Positions 6,753-22,589 of a stretch of 64,000 nt of DNA are shown here, one piece after another (the first letter of the stretch is position 1; each line of letters starts with the position of its first letter). Location: NCBI GenBank assembly GCA_049513715.1, contig JBEKVV010000004.1:128001-192000 (forward strand), read 5' to 3'. A model generated the notes under the pieces. It ran no database searches. It was not told where the DNA came from and saw nothing but the letters and a program-made list of their open reading frames with translations. The DNA comes from Candidatus Bathyarchaeia archaeon (lineage in GTDB: Archaea; Thermoproteota; Bathyarchaeia; 40CM-2-53-6). The position numbers and the translations under genes are program-made.

Positions 6753-7331
6753 CTAGACATGTAGTGGGGTCAGCGTATAGTATACTATATCCGTGCGTCG
6801 GTCAACCACCGCTAGGATCAGTTCCTTCTTCTCCCGTTCTGCGATCGTCAGAAGCTTTTCCAGTTTCCGCAGGCTCGCCTCTCCGCCCTCGTAAACGATG
6901 GATATGAGTCGCCTGAGTGGACCTTTTCCGTAAATATCGAAATCAAAGTTTCCACCGGATTCTCTGACAATATAACCCCTATCTCTCAGATCCCGATAGA
7001 CTAAGTATTTGATCCAGATTTCGGGTTTGACGAGGGAGAATTTCCTGACGAGGTCTCGCAAGTTAACTTCTTTTTCGTCCTTCTTTGTAGAGACGTGGAT
7101 TTTCTGTTTCTCGATGAGGTAGAAGGACTCGTAGGGTGTGAAGTAGAGTCTGTCCTTCTTGAGGTCTCCGAACCCCCTGTCCCGGAGTTCCATGAGGTCA
7201 GATTTGTAGGGTATGTACACACCGTGCGCATCAGAGAATGCGCTCCAAGGGGTAAACTGAGGCTTCTCCTCCGCTTGAATAGGAGGTTTGGCACTCTGCG
7301 GAGGCGGCGCGCTATTCTCCATGAAGACCAC
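6753..7331 (-). CDS. endA: tRNA-splicing endonuclease subunit, probably structural (non-catalytic)
   Basis: YESFYLIEK, YLVYRDLRDRGY, LILAVVD..DIVYY; the GxK(Y/F)G.DF loop and catalytic His are not evident. Confidence 0.85.
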   Translation of the reverse strand: MVFMENSAPPPQSAKPPIQAEEKPQFTPWSAFSDAHGVYIPYKSDLMELRDRGFGDLKKDRLYFTPYESFYLIEKQKIHVSTKKDEKEVNLRDLVRKFSLVKPEIWIKYLVYRDLRDRGYIVRESGGNFDFDIYGKGPLRRLISIVYEGGEASLRKLEKLLTIAEREKKELILAVVDRRTDIVYYTLTPLHV

Positions 7332-16550: not shown

Positions 16551-16656
16551 GCCCTGGTCGTTCAGTGGTCTAGGATGACGGCCTGTCACGTCGTCGACGC
16601 GGGTTCGAATCCCGCCCAAAGGAGCGGAAAGAATCTTCTCCTGGCGAGGGGCGCCA
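16551..16656 (+). tRNA. tRNA-Asp(GTC) with one intron in the acceptor stem (68/69)
   Basis: Removing 16619-16648 restores GCCCTGG/CCAGGGC, G73, CCA; strict BHB with CGCC/GGCG central helix and AGGAG/CTCCT outer helix. Confidence 0.9.
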
Positions 16657-18540: not shown

Positions 18541-18921
18541 ATGGCAAATGAGTCGCATAAAAGCGACGATCCAGAAGTTGACATTCAGCAGGTAATCTGC
18601 AAATTAGTGCTAGCTCTGAAGCGATTGGAGGGCTACAATCCGGTTCTAGATCTGCCGCTCATTGAGGAGGTAGCCCGCAGCGCGGCTTTCATCAGACTCG
18701 GCGAAAGCTTCCTGATCAATCCGAAATGCTCTCCGGGAACGTACGCCAGTATTTCTGATGGGATAGCGAAGCATGCGTCCAGAATGCGCCAAGCCATGAA
18801 GGAGCTGGCAGCTACGAGAGCGGAGCGAATGCGCTACCAAACTGCAACGGCACAAGCCGCGCAGGTCAAAGAGATCGTGGATAAGATCATTCACCAGGAG
18901 AATGAGCATGACAGCGCGTGA
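18541..18921 (+). CDS. Helical protein, putative terminase small subunit
   Basis: 126 aa helical ORF overlapping the terL start; assignment by position only. Confidence 0.5.
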   Translation: MANESHKSDDPEVDIQQVICKLVLALKRLEGYNPVLDLPLIEEVARSAAFIRLGESFLINPKCSPGTYASISDGIAKHASRMRQAMKELAATRAERMRYQTATAQAAQVKEIVDKIIHQENEHDSA

Positions 18922-20245
18922 AAGATTCCGAGAAGAGGTAAGTAAGGCTAAGTGGAATGCGGCCTACTTTGCCGAAATCTTCCTCTCTCTGAGACCGTTT
19001 CCATACCAAGTCGACTTTCTCAGGGACGATGGAAAAGAGATTGCCGCGGCATGCGGTCGCCAGGTTGGAAAGACCACCCTAGCCGCAATCAAGGGTTTGC
19101 ATTTTGCCTTCTTCCATCCAGACGTGACTGTGCTGATCATCAGCTCCACGCTCCGCCAAAGCATGATCCTGTTCGCAAAGATCCGCTCAATGACAGAGTC
19201 GAACCCAATTCTCCGAATGAAAGTGAAGAACTCGAACCGGACAACAATTGAATTCGATCACGGCAGCCGAATCGTGGCGTTGCCCTGCGGACCGACCGGT
19301 TACAGCCTACGAGGCCACACCGCGGACATGATCATCCTAGATGAAGCGAACTTCGTGCCGGAAGAGATTGTGGACGGCGTCGTAAGGCCCATGCTCATCG
19401 CCAAACCCAACTCAAGACTCATCATGGTCTCCACACCTTGGACTCGAAACCATCCATTCTACCGAGCCATCTCTGAGAAGGGTCGAGGATTTCATGTCTA
19501 CAGATGGCCGACAAGCCTCAGCCCACTAGTCTCCGCGGAGAAGCTTCAAGCCGACCGCAACGCCCTCGACGCTCTCACATTCAGAAGAGAGTACGAAGCC
19601 CAGTTCGTCGAAGAAAACGATTCCTATTTCCCAACCCACCTCATCTCGCAGTGCGTAGACGGAAGCTATGAACTCCTGGAGGATCAGGACGTTCTCCAAA
19701 CCGAACACAAAGGCGTCTTTCACCTGGGCGTGGATTTTGGGAAGCGGGTTGACCACAGTGTCCTAGCTGTTCTTGAGGAATCCGCAGGCCGACTTCAACG
19801 CTTAGTCTATCTAAAACAGTTCCCGCTGCAAACAAATTACGCAACGGTAATCGGCTGGATTCGCCGCCTCAACGAGGGTTTCGGATTCGAGAGTGTAACC
19901 CTAGACCAGACAGGAGTCGGAGAAGCACCAGTCGAAGACGTGAAAACCTTCCTTCCAAACGCTGAAGGCGTCATTCTGACGAACAAGATGAAACTGGATA
20001 TTCTATCGAACCTGCAACTTCTCATGCAACATGAGAGGTTGAAGATACCGCTCGAAAAGACCATAATCACCCAGATCAACGAGCAGCAATACGAGATCAA
20101 TAAGACAGGGGAACTAATCTTCTCACACCCAACCCGATCACACGACGACAAACTCTGGGCTTTGGTTTTTTCAGCTTGGGGAGCCAGAAAACCACCTCGC
20201 CCAAGCTTCTTGCCAATAACCCGCTCCTTTGGACTAAGACCCTAA
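18902..20245 (+). CDS. terL: Terminase large subunit
   Basis: PFPYQ, Walker A GRQVGKT, Walker B IILDEA, STP coupling motif, FRREYEAQF, nuclease GVDFG..D and HDD. Confidence 0.9.
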   Translation: MSMTARERFREEVSKAKWNAAYFAEIFLSLRPFPYQVDFLRDDGKEIAAACGRQVGKTTLAAIKGLHFAFFHPDVTVLIISSTLRQSMILFAKIRSMTESNPILRMKVKNSNRTTIEFDHGSRIVALPCGPTGYSLRGHTADMIILDEANFVPEEIVDGVVRPMLIAKPNSRLIMVSTPWTRNHPFYRAISEKGRGFHVYRWPTSLSPLVSAEKLQADRNALDALTFRREYEAQFVEENDSYFPTHLISQCVDGSYELLEDQDVLQTEHKGVFHLGVDFGKRVDHSVLAVLEESAGRLQRLVYLKQFPLQTNYATVIGWIRRLNEGFGFESVTLDQTGVGEAPVEDVKTFLPNAEGVILTNKMKLDILSNLQLLMQHERLKIPLEKTIITQINEQQYEINKTGELIFSHPTRSHDDKLWALVFSAWGARKPPRPSFLPITRSFGLRP

Positions 20246-20379
20246 CTGATCGAAATGATTGCCGGAACATGTAACGACTCAGCCGGTGACCACTTTGGGT
20301 CTATGGGCAATCTTGTCAGGATCGCTGATTCTCGGGTCTTGGAAAAGTTTAGGTAGTCTCACCCCTTGCTCGTGTGGTA

Positions 20380-20574
20380 GGGCCCGTAGCTCAGTCAGAT
20401 CCACGCAAAATGGATCCTAGATAGGTAGAGCATCGGAAACACCGTGCAATTCCACGGGTGTTGGTGATGCTTTTACCCTGGGTTTCTGGAACCTTAGGGA
20501 AGCCACCCGAAAAGACACCGCTTAACCGCGGTCTTGGGGAAGGGTCCCGGGTTCAAATCCCGGCGGGCCCGCCA
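20380..20574 (+). tRNA. tRNA-Lys(TTT) with four introns (D loop 17/17a, 30/31, 37/38, 43/44), CCA encoded
   Basis: Introns 20397-20422, 20437-20468, 20476-20504, 20511-20541; spliced GGGCCCGTAGCTCAGTCAGGTAGAGCATCGGGCTTTTAACCCGAGGGTCCCGGGTTCAAATCCCGGCGGGCCCGCCA. Confidence 0.9.
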
Positions 20575-20769
20575 CCTTCACTGAGTGGCTGTACCATTTT
20601 CTTGATGCCAGCAGGACAAAGTCCTCCCGCGAGTAGCCACCATCAGTCTTACGTGAGCATATGCCAGGATTTTTTCTGGTTTGGCGTTTGGAGCGAGCTG
20701 TCGTCAAAGACACCGCTCCCTTGACCACACTAGAACAATTCCTCAGCCCGACTTGTATTCTGCAGCGCA

Positions 20770-20794
20770 GGGCCCGTAGTTTAGTCAAGGTGAG
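20770..20794 (+). repeat. tRNA 5' fragment (positions 1-24), tRNA-Lys-like, intron-less
   Basis: GGGCCCGTAGTTTAGTCAAGGTGAG vs spliced Lys GGGCCCGTAGCTCAGTCAGGTAGAG, 20/25 identical. Confidence 0.65.
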
Positions 20795-20915
20795 TCCGAC
20801 TGTTTTCGTACACTTTTAGTGGGTGAGTGGCGTGACTGAGCCTAGGCAACGCGGAAGGCTATCTCAGCGCAAAGTCTCTTTAGTAAATCCAAAAGCTAGT
20901 CGTTTCGGGTCTATT

Positions 20916-21262
20916 ATGAGCCCGCAATTCATCCGCTCCAAAAGAGCTTCCAATCTTAGCAAATCCGTGGAGCTTGAGGCGTTCCTTGGTTCCTGCAGAA
21001 ACGATTGGCTAAAAGAGAAAGCCGAAGAGGCATTCACAGAAATAAAAGCTCATTATGAAATTGGCGACAAGGTCCAGAAGGACAGATGGCCGCGCTATTA
21101 CGTCTTGACATGGGGATCAACAATCTGTATGTTCATAAGCTTGGGCGCGACTGGCGCTTAACCTACTCGCTCGTAGCAGATGAAGTAGGAATCATGGCCT
21201 TCTGCCTTGAAATCCTGACACACAAGCAATATAACAAAAGGTTTGGTTACGGGAACACCTAG
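20916..21262 (+). pseudogene. RelE-like toxin with a frameshift near 21112
   Basis: ...IGDKVQKDRWPRYYVLTW continues in the -1 frame as GINNLYVHKLGRDWRLTYSLV...LEILTHKQYNKRFGY; one G missing in a G4 run. Confidence 0.6.
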
Positions 21263-21519
21263 CGCACGCGGATGCTTTTCGCCAATGCCCGCTTTAACGT
21301 GGCGTTGTCAGCGAAGACCCAGACGATTTCACGATCATTCAAGATTATTTTGTTGCTTGCTAGCAAGTACTCTATGACACGGTTGAAAGTTTGGTATTGT
21401 ACCTTGCGCGGGAGGCTTTGCCACAGGGCCTTCTTGGTCGGATAGTTTTTCGCTTTGTGTATGGCTTCTTCCACCATCAGTATGGTTCCTAGTGTGGGTT
21501 CGTGGGCGTTTTTCACCAT
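21259..21519 (-). CDS. Small winged-helix protein, putative antitoxin/regulator
   Basis: PTLGTILMVEE..LWQSLPRKVQYQTF..VIEYLLASNKI; convergent with the toxin, 4-bp overlap. Confidence 0.65.
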   Translation of the reverse strand: MVKNAHEPTLGTILMVEEAIHKAKNYPTKKALWQSLPRKVQYQTFNRVIEYLLASNKIILNDREIVWVFADNATLKRALAKSIRVR

Positions 21520-21578
21520 CAGACATTTCCTCTCCCTTAGAGTTACTACTACAGTAGACTACTATGGTAATGTGCTAT

Positions 21579-21613
21579 TTATACATAATTGTATATTATA
21601 CAAGTATGTATAA
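21579..21613. promoter_or_regulatory. 35-bp AT-rich palindrome (operator or recombination site)
   Basis: TTATACATA-A-TTGTATA-T-TATACAA-G-TATGTATAA, one mismatched pair. Confidence 0.6.
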
Positions 21614-21700
21614 TGCTTTAATTGTCGGAAAACGCTATGCCCGCCACATCCATCAAGGGTTGTCATGAAGATTTTGCTCAAGATCCCTGATCTCATGATG

Positions 21701-21731
21701 TTGGTGGGTTCAAATCCCACCGGCCCAACCA
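21701..21731 (+). repeat. tRNA T-arm/acceptor 3' fragment, left direct repeat
   Basis: TTGGTGGGTTCAAATCCCACC-GGCCCAACCA. Confidence 0.8.
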
Positions 21732-21779
21732 TCTCGTCTGTGTAATGACCGTTCTTTCACGAGAGTATAATTGAGTCCA

Positions 21780-22043
21780 TCATTTGTAGGCCCTTCCTCT
21801 GAACTCGACAGCGAGAACGGCAATCGTTTTGGATTCCCAGTCGACCTCATACTCGATGCGGATTTCTCCTATTCGTATTCTGTAGGTGTCATGCATCCCA
21901 GCCAGTTTCCTGACATCGTATTCAGGAACTGGCGCTGGATTCTGACTCAAAGCCTCTAAAACCAGCAGGACTCCACGCGCGTAGTGGCTAGGTATACGCC
22001 TAAGCGACTTCCTAGCACGGTTTGAAATAATGATTTCGAACAG
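21780..22043 (-). CDS. relE: RelE/ParE toxin (87 aa, apparent CTG start, missed by the ORF track)
   Basis: FEIIISNRARKSLRRIP...NPAP..DVRKLAGMHDTYRIRIGEIRIEYEVDW..TIAVLAVEFRGRAYK*. Confidence 0.85.
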   Translation of the reverse strand: MFEIIISNRARKSLRRIPSHYARGVLLVLEALSQNPAPVPEYDVRKLAGMHDTYRIRIGEIRIEYEVDWESKTIAVLAVEFRGRAYK

Positions 22044-22048
22044 GAGAG

Positions 22049-22252
22049 CTACGCACCGAGTTCCTTTCGGAGCTGGCCTAAGGTGACGTAGCGGCCCTTC
22101 TCAACCTCTAGCCGACCCTGTCGGATCAGTTTTCTTTCTCTGGCAGTCACTCGCTCTTCCGGAAGTAGGGCCGCCCTTAAGCGAAGAAGCTCTATCTTCA
22201 CGTCGTCAAGCTTCGTGATTACTTTACGCAATTCAGTCTTGGTTACTGCCAT
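22049..22252 (-). CDS. Antitoxin upstream of relE
   Basis: 67 aa with C-terminal KGRYVTLGQLRKELG; canonical antitoxin-toxin order. Confidence 0.75.
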   Translation of the reverse strand: MAVTKTELRKVITKLDDVKIELLRLRAALLPEERVTARERKLIRQGRLEVEKGRYVTLGQLRKELGA

Positions 22253-22373
22253 TAGATTATCCCGCACATCTGCAGTCTAACCAACTAGTAAAAGAATCTG
22301 GCGTCTGGCAGAGCCTTATCTCCTTCCTCCTACGGGGTGGGTATTCTACTTAGAAACGTGATTAGTCCCACAA

Positions 22374-22404
22374 TTGGTGGGTTCAAATCCCACCTGCCCC
22401 AGCA
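22374..22404 (+). repeat. tRNA T-arm/acceptor 3' fragment, right direct repeat
   Basis: TTGGTGGGTTCAAATCCCACC-TGCCCCAGCA; first 21 bp identical to 21701-21721. Confidence 0.8.
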
Positions 22405-22445
22405 CTTTCCTGTTTACCCGTTGCCGTCGAGCATTGCACCTACTC

Positions 22446-22589
22446 CATTGGAGGTCGGCATGTGATGTGCTGGTCGGTGATGCTTTTACCTTTTCGGGAA
22501 ACGTAAACCCAGGGAAGCCACCCGAAAAGAAACCGCTTAACCGCGGTCTTGGGGAAGGGTCCCGGGTTCAAACCCCGGCGGGCCCGCCA
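22446..22589 (+). repeat. Partial second tRNA-Lys(TTT) copy (positions 25-76) with introns at 30/31, 37/38, 43/44
   Basis: Exons differ from the intact gene at positions 28 and 60 only; introns 22452-22481, 22489-22519, 22526-22556. Confidence 0.88.

Follow-up and report, generated by a model that had tools for sequence, protein, structure and literature searches.

The window analyzed here, a stretch of 64,000 nucleotides (nt) from the genome of an uncultured Candidatus Bathyarchaeia archaeon of peat or wetland, carries a tRNA-Lys(UUU) gene that is interrupted by four introns. The gene lies on the forward strand at positions 20380 to 20574 (G000:C4:148380-148574) and is 195 nt long, 118 nt of which belong to inserts of 26, 32, 29 and 31 nt located at tRNA positions 17/17a, 30/31, 37/38 and 43/44, respectively. 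Its five exons measure 17, 14, 7, 6 and 33 nt. Judging from the sequence, the gene is real and almost certainly functional, with splicing deduced rather than observed. We assign a probability of about 0.88 to the reading that this locus is functional, is apparently the only tRNA-Lys(UUU) gene of the genome and has its four introns spliced by the endonuclease EndA and the ligase RtcB. The anatomy of the gene, its conservation, the covariation in its splice motifs, the alleles devoid of one or another intron and the genes for the splicing enzymes are directly visible in the DNA.

Joining the exons in silico yields a 77-nt sequence that ARAGORN calls tRNA-Lys(ttt). None of its four stems has an unpaired position, its D-loop and variable loop measure 9 and 5 nt, respectively, and it has a discriminator G and an encoded CCA. 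ARAGORN and the constraints of our intron-aware parser together recover the attributes of a tRNA-Lys(UUU), namely a class I cloverleaf, UUU at positions 34 to 36, U33, a purine at position 37, U8, A14, G18G19 and the T-loop. When the parser was run blind over the genome, the four-intron solution was the sole parse of this gene and obtained the top score of all genes. The product stays the same if the first boundary is shifted by up to 2 nt or the last one by 1 nt; the geometry of the bulge-helix-bulge (BHB) splice motif selects the positions given above. The initial annotation, which had proposed a tRNA-Lys(TTT) gene with four introns, was thus borne out by the perfect cloverleaf of the joined exons, the unique parse and the orthologs, which keep the exons and vary the introns. 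The insert sizes and sites, the intronic fraction and the two exons of 7 and 6 nt that it had listed were all confirmed.

Other architectures were tried and rejected. An earlier and looser version of the parser also allowed three introns and a variable arm of 14 nt, an arrangement that does not give a Lys-type tRNA. A split or permuted gene was ruled out, the five exons being colinear within 195 nt. Self-splicing introns of group I or group II have a ribozyme core of hundreds of nucleotides; they were ruled out by the 26- to 32-nt length of the inserts, and Rfam intron families are absent from the window. The unspliced gene escapes the usual tools: ARAGORN and Rfam at its gathering threshold both report only a tRNA-Asp gene (16551-16623) in the window. 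In a search of the whole genome with the Rfam tRNA model the locus gave a 15-bit partial match limited to the T-arm, and ARAGORN with introns allowed made no tRNA-Lys call in the whole genome.

We searched for orthologs in 41 genomes, i.e., that of the window and 40 relatives, and obtained 20 loci of the same genus with a complete gene from the 5' to the 3' exon; three genomes of the genus with partial matches (G003, G009 and G011) were left out of this set. Over the 20 sequences, 72 of the 77 exon columns are invariant, as opposed to 28 of the 118 intron columns, and the closest ortholog is 82% identical overall to the gene of the window. All four inserts are present in 12 orthologs. In the other eight, the D-loop insert alone is precisely missing.

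All four inserts match the geometry of the BHB motif at the boundaries that restore the tRNA. On the 5' side of an intron, the central helix is built from exon nt -6 to -3, and the bulge comprises two exon nt and one intron nt; on the 3' side, intron nt -6 to -3 supply the second strand of the helix, and the bulge comprises two intron nt and one exon nt. Intron 1 forms three central pairs out of four, with one G-U pair and one C.A mismatch, an internal helix of 6 bp and an outer helix of 1 bp. Intron 2 has a complete central helix, an internal helix of 6+3 bp and a 4-bp outer helix in which D-stem nt 21 to 24 pair with loop nt 32 to 35. The central helix of intron 3 is also complete, with anticodon-loop nt 32 to 35 pairing with the intron, and it is flanked by a 3-bp internal helix, which can be extended, and a 1-bp outer helix. 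Intron 4 has three of four central pairs, A38.G being unpaired, an internal helix of 5 bp and an outer helix of 3 bp. Introns 1 and 4 are thus 'relaxed' BHB motifs in this genome, and at least one flanking helix, outer or intron internal, is found in each of the four inserts. The accessible text of one paper describes relaxed motifs with three of four central pairs as accepted substrates of (alpha-beta)2 enzymes (PMC5829648).

The central and internal helices were then followed in the alignment of the 20 orthologs, in which 93.4% of 590 cells are paired. In a control in which the 3' partners were slid by 1 to 3 columns, 33.7 to 49.4% of the cells were paired. Both-sided changes occur in 6 of 34 helix pairs, a number reached in none of 500 shuffles. 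This covariation comes mostly from intron 2, four internal-helix pairs of which show compensatory changes. The central helix of intron 3 never varies and is therefore uninformative in this respect, and the outer exon helices consist of exon sequence that is invariant in the 20 orthologs and so carry no covariation information. The central helix of intron 1 is a perfect 4 bp in all 11 other orthologs that bear this intron. The pattern argues that the BHB helices are maintained by selection, with most of the signal in intron 2. A continuous helix around intron 2, the favorite of the energy model, is not conserved in the orthologs, whereas the BHB register is, with 98.8% paired.

Outside the genus, tRNA-Lys(UUU) was parsed from 11 genomes of the same order, for a total of 31 genes. 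Four introns are found in 15 of the 31 and five in none. One genome (G033) has four introns at sites identical to those of the window's gene, and two (G045, locus L092, and G041, locus L096) have four at 9/10, 30/31, 37/38 and 43/44. Three introns are present at 17/17a, 30/31 and the canonical site in G023, G048, G040 and G052, at 17/17a, 37/38 and 43/44 in G034, at 17/17a, 30/31 and 40/41 in G037, and at 9/10, the canonical site and 43/44 in G044 (locus L093), whereas G025 has two, at 37/38 and 43/44. Intron 2 is accordingly missing from the alleles of G034, G025 and G044, and intron 4 from those of G023, G048, G040, G052 and G037. The precise natural absence of each of the three noncanonical inserts fixes their boundaries independently of the splice motif. 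The canonical 37/38 intron is kept in 31 of 31 genes, and no allele devoid of it was seen among them.

Six insertion sites are used across the order in tRNA-Lys(UUU), namely 9/10, 17/17a, 30/31, 37/38, 40/41 and 43/44. In one family of the order (G045, G044 and G041), a 9/10 intron replaces the D-loop intron. A gene tree built on 162 columns needs five gains or losses of intron 1, of which well-supported branches force one, and the clustering of its presence is no stronger than in shuffles (82 of 500). In other families of the order, the D-loop intron of a tRNA with a CAT anticodon (L046, G026:C21) is clearly homologous to intron 1, and a tRNA-Lys(CUU) gene (L049, G027:C84) has a 43/44 intron similar to intron 4 at its 3' end; by sequence comparison, related introns appear to occur in different tRNA species.

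When one genome of each prokaryotic species was searched for a pattern combining both micro-exons with the beginning of exon 5, 20 loci came up. Fifteen are in Bathyarchaeia or Bathyarchaeota metagenome-assembled genomes (MAGs) from peat and soil projects, and one is in 'archaeon RBG_16_50_20'. The remaining four lie on contigs of 2.9 to 13.8 kb in MAGs labelled bacterial, which are most simply explained as mis-binned.

The two micro-exons show how tightly BHB motifs can be packed. Exon 3 consists of 1 nt of the 3' bulge of intron 2, 4 nt of the central helix of intron 3 and 2 nt of the 5' bulge of intron 3. Exon 4 consists of A38, 3 nt (positions 39 to 41) of the central helix of intron 4 and 2 nt (42 and 43) of its 5' bulge, A38 being both the third and last nt of the 3' bulge of intron 3 and the unpaired fourth position of the intron 4 helix. 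The BHB cores of the four introns, i.e., central helices, bulges and internal helices, therefore do not overlap, save for the shared A38, and 7 and 6 nt are the minimum spacing at which neighboring cores can coexist. Competition with the central helices of neighboring motifs is limited to the optional outer exon helices. As the cores do not overlap, the order of splicing is not forced, and the earlier claim that overlapping BHB helices imply ordered splicing did not hold; modeling gives a preference only. The cost of forming the intron 3 motif drops from 13 to 16 to 4 to 5 kcal/mol in every intermediate without intron 2, which suggests that removal of intron 2 (30/31) would be preferred before that of intron 3 (37/38), with introns 4 and 1 behaving independently of the others in the model. 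The fold of the precursor is more stable than those of 200 of 200 shuffles (z = -3.71).

The genome encodes two EndA homologs, of 186 and 192 amino acids (aa). The 186-aa protein matches, over its whole length, the catalytic subunit of the (alpha-beta)2 enzyme of Aeropyrum pernix (3p1z_B, E 2.5e-41), and its next matches are from Sulfolobus tokodaii and Pyrobaculum aerophilum. The alignment with the A. pernix protein covers a stretch that we take to be the Crenarchaea-specific loop. The 192-aa protein is a divergent paralog likely to serve as the second, structural subunit. RtcB is encoded as well (578 bits). The genome thus appears to encode a crenarchaeal-type alpha/beta splicing endonuclease together with an RtcB ligase, the assembly and substrate range of the endonuclease being predictions. 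Upstream of the tRNA gene, an A-rich stretch and a T-rich TATA-like motif are found at an equal distance at 20 of 20 ortholog loci, consistent with a promoter function of the TATA-like box.

On this basis we propose that transcription from the TATA-like promoter would produce a pre-tRNA-Lys of approximately 195 nt, in which each of the four introns would form a BHB motif together with the neighboring exon. A heterotetrameric (alpha-beta)2 EndA would cut both 3-nt bulges of each motif, and RtcB would join the exons to yield a normal 74-nt tRNA plus CCA. The micro-exons would act as the smallest possible spacers, each providing 1 nt of the upstream bulge, 4 (or 3) helix nt and 2 nt of the downstream bulge. 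Since the cores sit side by side without overlap, the four introns could in principle be cut independently, and removal of intron 2 would ease formation of the motif of the canonical intron 3.

Table 1 Features of the tRNA-Lys(UUU) locus and its surroundings (window positions unless a contig is named)
Feature	Position	Strand	Description
TATA-like box TTTAGGTA	20348-20355	+	Putative archaeal promoter with an A-rich stretch before it; its end lies 24 nt upstream of the mature 5' end
Exon 1	20380-20396	+	tRNA positions 1-17: acceptor 5' strand, U8, D-stem 5' strand, start of D-loop; 1 column varies among 20 orthologs
Intron 1	20397-20422	+	D-loop, 17/17a; relaxed BHB
Exon 2	20423-20436	+	Positions 17a-30: remaining D-loop, D-stem 3' strand, 26, 27-30
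Intron 2	20437-20468	+	Anticodon stem, 30/31; strict hBHBh'
Exon 3	20469-20475	+	Positions 31-37 with anticodon UUU; invariant in 20/20 orthologs
Intron 3	20476-20504	+	Canonical site 37/38
Exon 4	20505-20510	+	Positions 38-43
Intron 4	20511-20541	+	43/44, junction of anticodon stem and variable loop; relaxed BHB
Exon 5	20542-20574	+	Positions 44-73 and encoded CCA: variable loop, T-arm, acceptor 3' strand, discriminator G
EndA catalytic (alpha) subunit gene	G000:C1:841621-841866	-	186 aa; outside the window (reading frame at L021:1462-2022, minus strand)
EndA second (structural, beta-like) subunit gene	6753-7331	-	192 aa, divergent paralog; 13 kb upstream of the tRNA-Lys(UUU) gene
Terminase large-subunit open reading frame (ORF)	18902-20245	+	Pfam Terminase_6N, Terminase_6C; stops 135 nt before the tRNA gene
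Degenerate 5' fragment	20770-20794	+	Like exons 1 and 2 without intron 1; 195 nt downstream
Small ORF	21086-21262	+	Between gene and left-over copy
tRNA-like 3' fragment	21700-21735	+	T-arm and acceptor strand; no recognizable 5' partner
Small ORF	21780-21950	-	Between gene and left-over copy
Small ORF	22049-22267	-	Between gene and left-over copy
tRNA-like 3' fragment	22335-22401	+	T-arm and acceptor strand; no recognizable 5' partner
Left-over partial copy of the tRNA-Lys(UUU) gene	22473-22589	+	Covers the final ~10 nt of intron 2 through CCA, with its own introns 3 and 4; 1.9 kb downstream

The surroundings of the gene look like the footprint of integration events that duplicated parts of the intron-bearing tRNA gene, as expected of attachment-site duplication (Table 1). 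The left-over copy downstream is 86% identical overall to the gene; its intron 4 matches at 30 of 31 positions, and its strongly diverged intron 3 is similar to the one found in a different clade of the genus. Apart from this intron 4, the four introns have no paralogs in the genome. Inspection revealed no BHB-compatible junction between the degenerate 5' fragment and the left-over 3' copy. The terminase ORF upstream may be a proviral remnant. Two of the three small ORFs give weak matches to ParE toxins, and an adjoining 72-aa ORF could be an antitoxin; ParE toxin/antitoxin pairs are typical cargo of mobile islands. The metagenome depth spikes at the two tRNA-like 3' fragments, which shows that other genes or organisms share these segments. 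The neighbors of the gene, including the terminase, are kept beside the ortholog in none of the 19 other loci. Comparable partial copies of the tRNA-Lys(UUU) gene are found in three other genomes (G018, G020 and G033). No integrase was found between the gene and its left-over copy or near the degenerate copy in G018.

We determined how frequent such genes are in the rest of the genome. Although the assembly is estimated to be 99.4% complete, only 18 genes pass the threshold of the Rfam tRNA model. Approximately 29 convincing anchors composed of a T-arm and acceptor strand were identified; one is at the distance from 5' end to T-arm of an uninterrupted gene (50 nt), and the others are at 64 to 177 nt. 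A first version of the parser was too permissive, giving chance parses with 'introns' of 60 to 130 nt, a second was too strict (12 genes), and a third returned 32 parses. Using a rule set after the results had been seen (score of at least 18, perfect acceptor stem and acceptance by ARAGORN), we kept 16 genes. The 16 dropped parses, of which ARAGORN rejected 10 and accepted 6, had low scores, spans of 199 to 315 nt and, for the most part, an acceptor mismatch or several alternative parses. Among the confident genes, one has no intron, five have one, seven have two and three have four.

At least two four-intron genes thus exist in addition to tRNA-Lys(UUU): tRNA-Pro(GGG) (C2:373349-373529, forward strand) and tRNA-Leu(CAG) (C5:220117-220321, reverse strand), the latter with exons of 8, 6, 19, 7 and 48 nt. 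In tRNA-Pro(GGG), 75 of 79 exon columns are invariant over 11 sequences, versus 59 of 102 intron columns; in tRNA-Leu(CAG), the figures are 83 of 88 and 44 of 117 over 6 sequences. A five-intron parse of tRNA-Gln(CUG) on contig C8 (score 13, 18 alternative parses) was dropped as unproven, and four is thus not established as the maximum of the genome. Two more interrupted tRNA genes are present in the window, one at 581-724 on the forward strand, with a span of 144 nt and an acceptor stem as in tRNA-Lys, and one at ~270-470 on the reverse strand; ARAGORN mis-reads them as single-intron Phe(aaa) and Ser(aga), respectively. A 97-nt gene elsewhere in the genome (G000:C2:419817-419913, reverse strand), called tRNA-Pyl(cta) by ARAGORN and scoring 47.9 bits with the Rfam tRNA model, could be either an interrupted tRNA that was read wrongly or a true tRNA of the amber-suppressor type.

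According to the accessible text of the tRNAscan-SE 2.0 paper, archaeal tRNA genes have at most three introns (PMC8450103). In three Asgard genomes, 92 to 95% of the tRNA genes have introns and over half have several, as given in the accessible part of the report by Valentin-Alvarado et al. 2024 (PMC11291895). A bioRxiv preprint of October 2026 lists 2.2 inserts per gene in Asgard focal families, with up to five in one gene, and Bathyarchaeia are not mentioned in its accessible text (10.64898/2026.10.13.758758). The ceiling of three introns invoked by the initial annotation is therefore found in print, while the rarity that it implied is contradicted by the Asgard genes. Its reservation that four-intron tRNA genes might already be common was partly justified, given the two further genes in this genome and the 15 of 31 tRNA-Lys(UUU) genes in the order. 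Full-text literature searches, judged from listings and abstracts, returned no account of multi-intron tRNA genes in Bathyarchaeia or Bathyarchaeota. Four-intron tRNA genes are frequent in this lineage but, as far as these searches reach, undescribed.

Several observations weigh against a functional gene with four spliced introns. The structure of the precursor with all four BHB cores has a predicted energy of -60.8 kcal/mol, compared with -83.6 kcal/mol for the minimum free energy (MFE) fold, from which the motifs of introns 2 and 3 are absent. Forcing a single motif costs 4.5, 8.9, 13.1 and 1.7 kcal/mol for introns 1 to 4, respectively; these folding energies suggest that introns 4 and 1 would be the most accessible. 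The C.A mismatch of intron 1 is the sole unpaired central-helix cell among the 12 orthologs with this intron, and the central helix of intron 4 is limited to three pairs, the fourth forming in 5 of the 20 orthologs. No second Lys(UUU) gene was found by exon-motif search, by the parser or by ARAGORN with introns allowed, but the census of the parser amounts to 16 confident genes of ~46 expected, and a gene of very different sequence could escape it. The contamination of the MAG is estimated at 8.79%. Finally, the sequencing runs listed for this stretch include none of RNA, and we infer transcription, cleavage, ligation and any order of splicing from DNA alone.

It may be that only three inserts are removed, the motif of intron 1 having decayed so that the 26-nt D-loop insert is retained or the copy is nonfunctional. 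The mismatch just described, unique to this copy and accompanied by a G-U pair, would fit such a decay, and the MFE fold pairs the region in another register; moreover, missed inserts are often annotated as enlarged D-loops in Asgard archaea, according to the accessible text of the preprint (10.64898/2026.10.13.758758). Nevertheless, the internal helix of 6 bp and the two 3-nt bulges are preserved, the cost of forcing the motif is only 4.5 kcal/mol, and relaxed motifs of this kind are, in the text cited above, substrates of (alpha-beta)2 enzymes. Eight congeners have an identical mature sequence without the insert, and the searches revealed no other gene that could supply this tRNA. A 26-nt insert before G18-G19 would also disturb the contact between the D-loop and the T-loop. 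We consider retention of intron 1 to be quite unlikely.

The gene might also be a pseudogene in decay or a remnant left by the integration of a mobile element, the working tRNA-Lys(UUU) being encoded elsewhere. The locus does have the look of an integration hot spot, with the terminase upstream, ParE-like fragments and three tRNA fragments downstream, a left-over 3' copy at 1.9 kb and neighbors that are not conserved in the 19 other loci. However, orthologs in 19 other species genomes have identical exons in spite of the divergence of the introns, the best identity being 82%, which indicates that both the mature tRNA and the splice helices are under purifying selection. Conservation extends to the promoter-like box, and unlike the gene, the true relics, i.e., the copy at 22473-22589, the fragment at 20770-20794 and that of G018, are visibly truncated or mutated. 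A pseudogene or relic thus appears highly improbable. Lastly, we give almost no credence to an assembly or binning artefact in which the 195-nt structure would be a chimera of reads from several organisms: although De Bruijn unitigs break in the T-arm (~20546), a segment common to many tRNA genes, and the MAG shows the contamination mentioned above, contigs from 4 of 4 public peat or wetland runs match 19800-20546 and 20546-22561 with zero differences (the source sample may be among these runs, so that they show the assembly to be reproducible but do not amount to independent support), 24 metagenome runs from peat or wetland contain 99% of the words sampled from a 2.9-kb stretch around the gene, and the architecture recurs in 11 other species of the genus and in three genomes of another family with other intron sequences. 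Short junctions with sides of 20 to 33 nt that also appeared in the comparison with these contigs stem from other tRNA genes or organisms and were disregarded.

The four-intron tRNA-Lys(UUU) gene is a clean and comparatively well-supported case exceeding the long-quoted archaeal maximum of three. Bathyarchaeia are abundant in peat and sediments, and no published account of interrupted tRNAs in this lineage was found in the literature searched. As standard finders miss most tRNA genes of this genome, quality scores of Bathyarchaeia MAGs and inferences on codon usage are biased. Together, the mosaic of intron presence and absence and the intron-bearing integration fragments form a natural system for the study of archaeal tRNA intron gain, loss and exchange. 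One might speculate that this order is a third hot spot of tRNA intron accumulation with fast turnover, distinct from those of Thermoproteales and the Asgard families, and that integrating mobile elements carry intron-bearing tRNA fragments between lineages. The fast turnover is suggested by the six insertion sites used by tRNA-Lys across the order and by the presence or absence of the D-loop intron between near-identical congeners. We regard this scenario as doubtful; if true, integrating elements would be a concrete vehicle for the arrival and exchange of introns, a route that the Asgard study, in its accessible text, could not find.

Three known systems resemble the one described here. In Thermoproteales, exemplified by Pyrobaculum calidifontis with 71 introns in 46 tRNA genes (Sugahara 2008 and Fujishima 2010, as cited in the accessible text of PMC8450103), short BHB introns likewise occur at canonical and noncanonical sites, several per gene, sometimes with competing motifs. 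The splicing endonuclease is of the crenarchaeal (alpha-beta)2 type there and predicted to be so in the present genome, the alpha subunit found here being closest to the A. pernix, S. tokodaii and P. aerophilum enzymes. Thermoproteales differ in their published maximum of three introns per gene, as given in the accessible text, compared with four here, and in being hyperthermophiles, whereas the present organism is a mesophilic peat-soil member of the Bathyarchaeia. Their introns also often form families across tRNA types (accessible text of 10.64898/2026.10.13.758758), whereas intron paralogs are confined here to the left-over gene fragment. With Asgard archaea, this genome shares the interruption of nearly all tRNA genes, many D-arm introns missed by standard software, at least two introns in most genes (up to five there, according to the accessible text), a wetland soil habitat and BHB-capable boundaries; the lineage, however, is Bathyarchaeia. 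In the red alga Cyanidioschyzon merolae, nuclear tRNA genes also have multiple ectopic BHB-type introns, including in the D-arm, and a preferred order of intron removal correlated with BHB stability was shown experimentally in that system, according to the accessible part of the report (PMC3728597). C. merolae is a eukaryote with, in the same text, no more than three introns per gene and some permuted genes, whereas the exons of the Bathyarchaeia gene are colinear.

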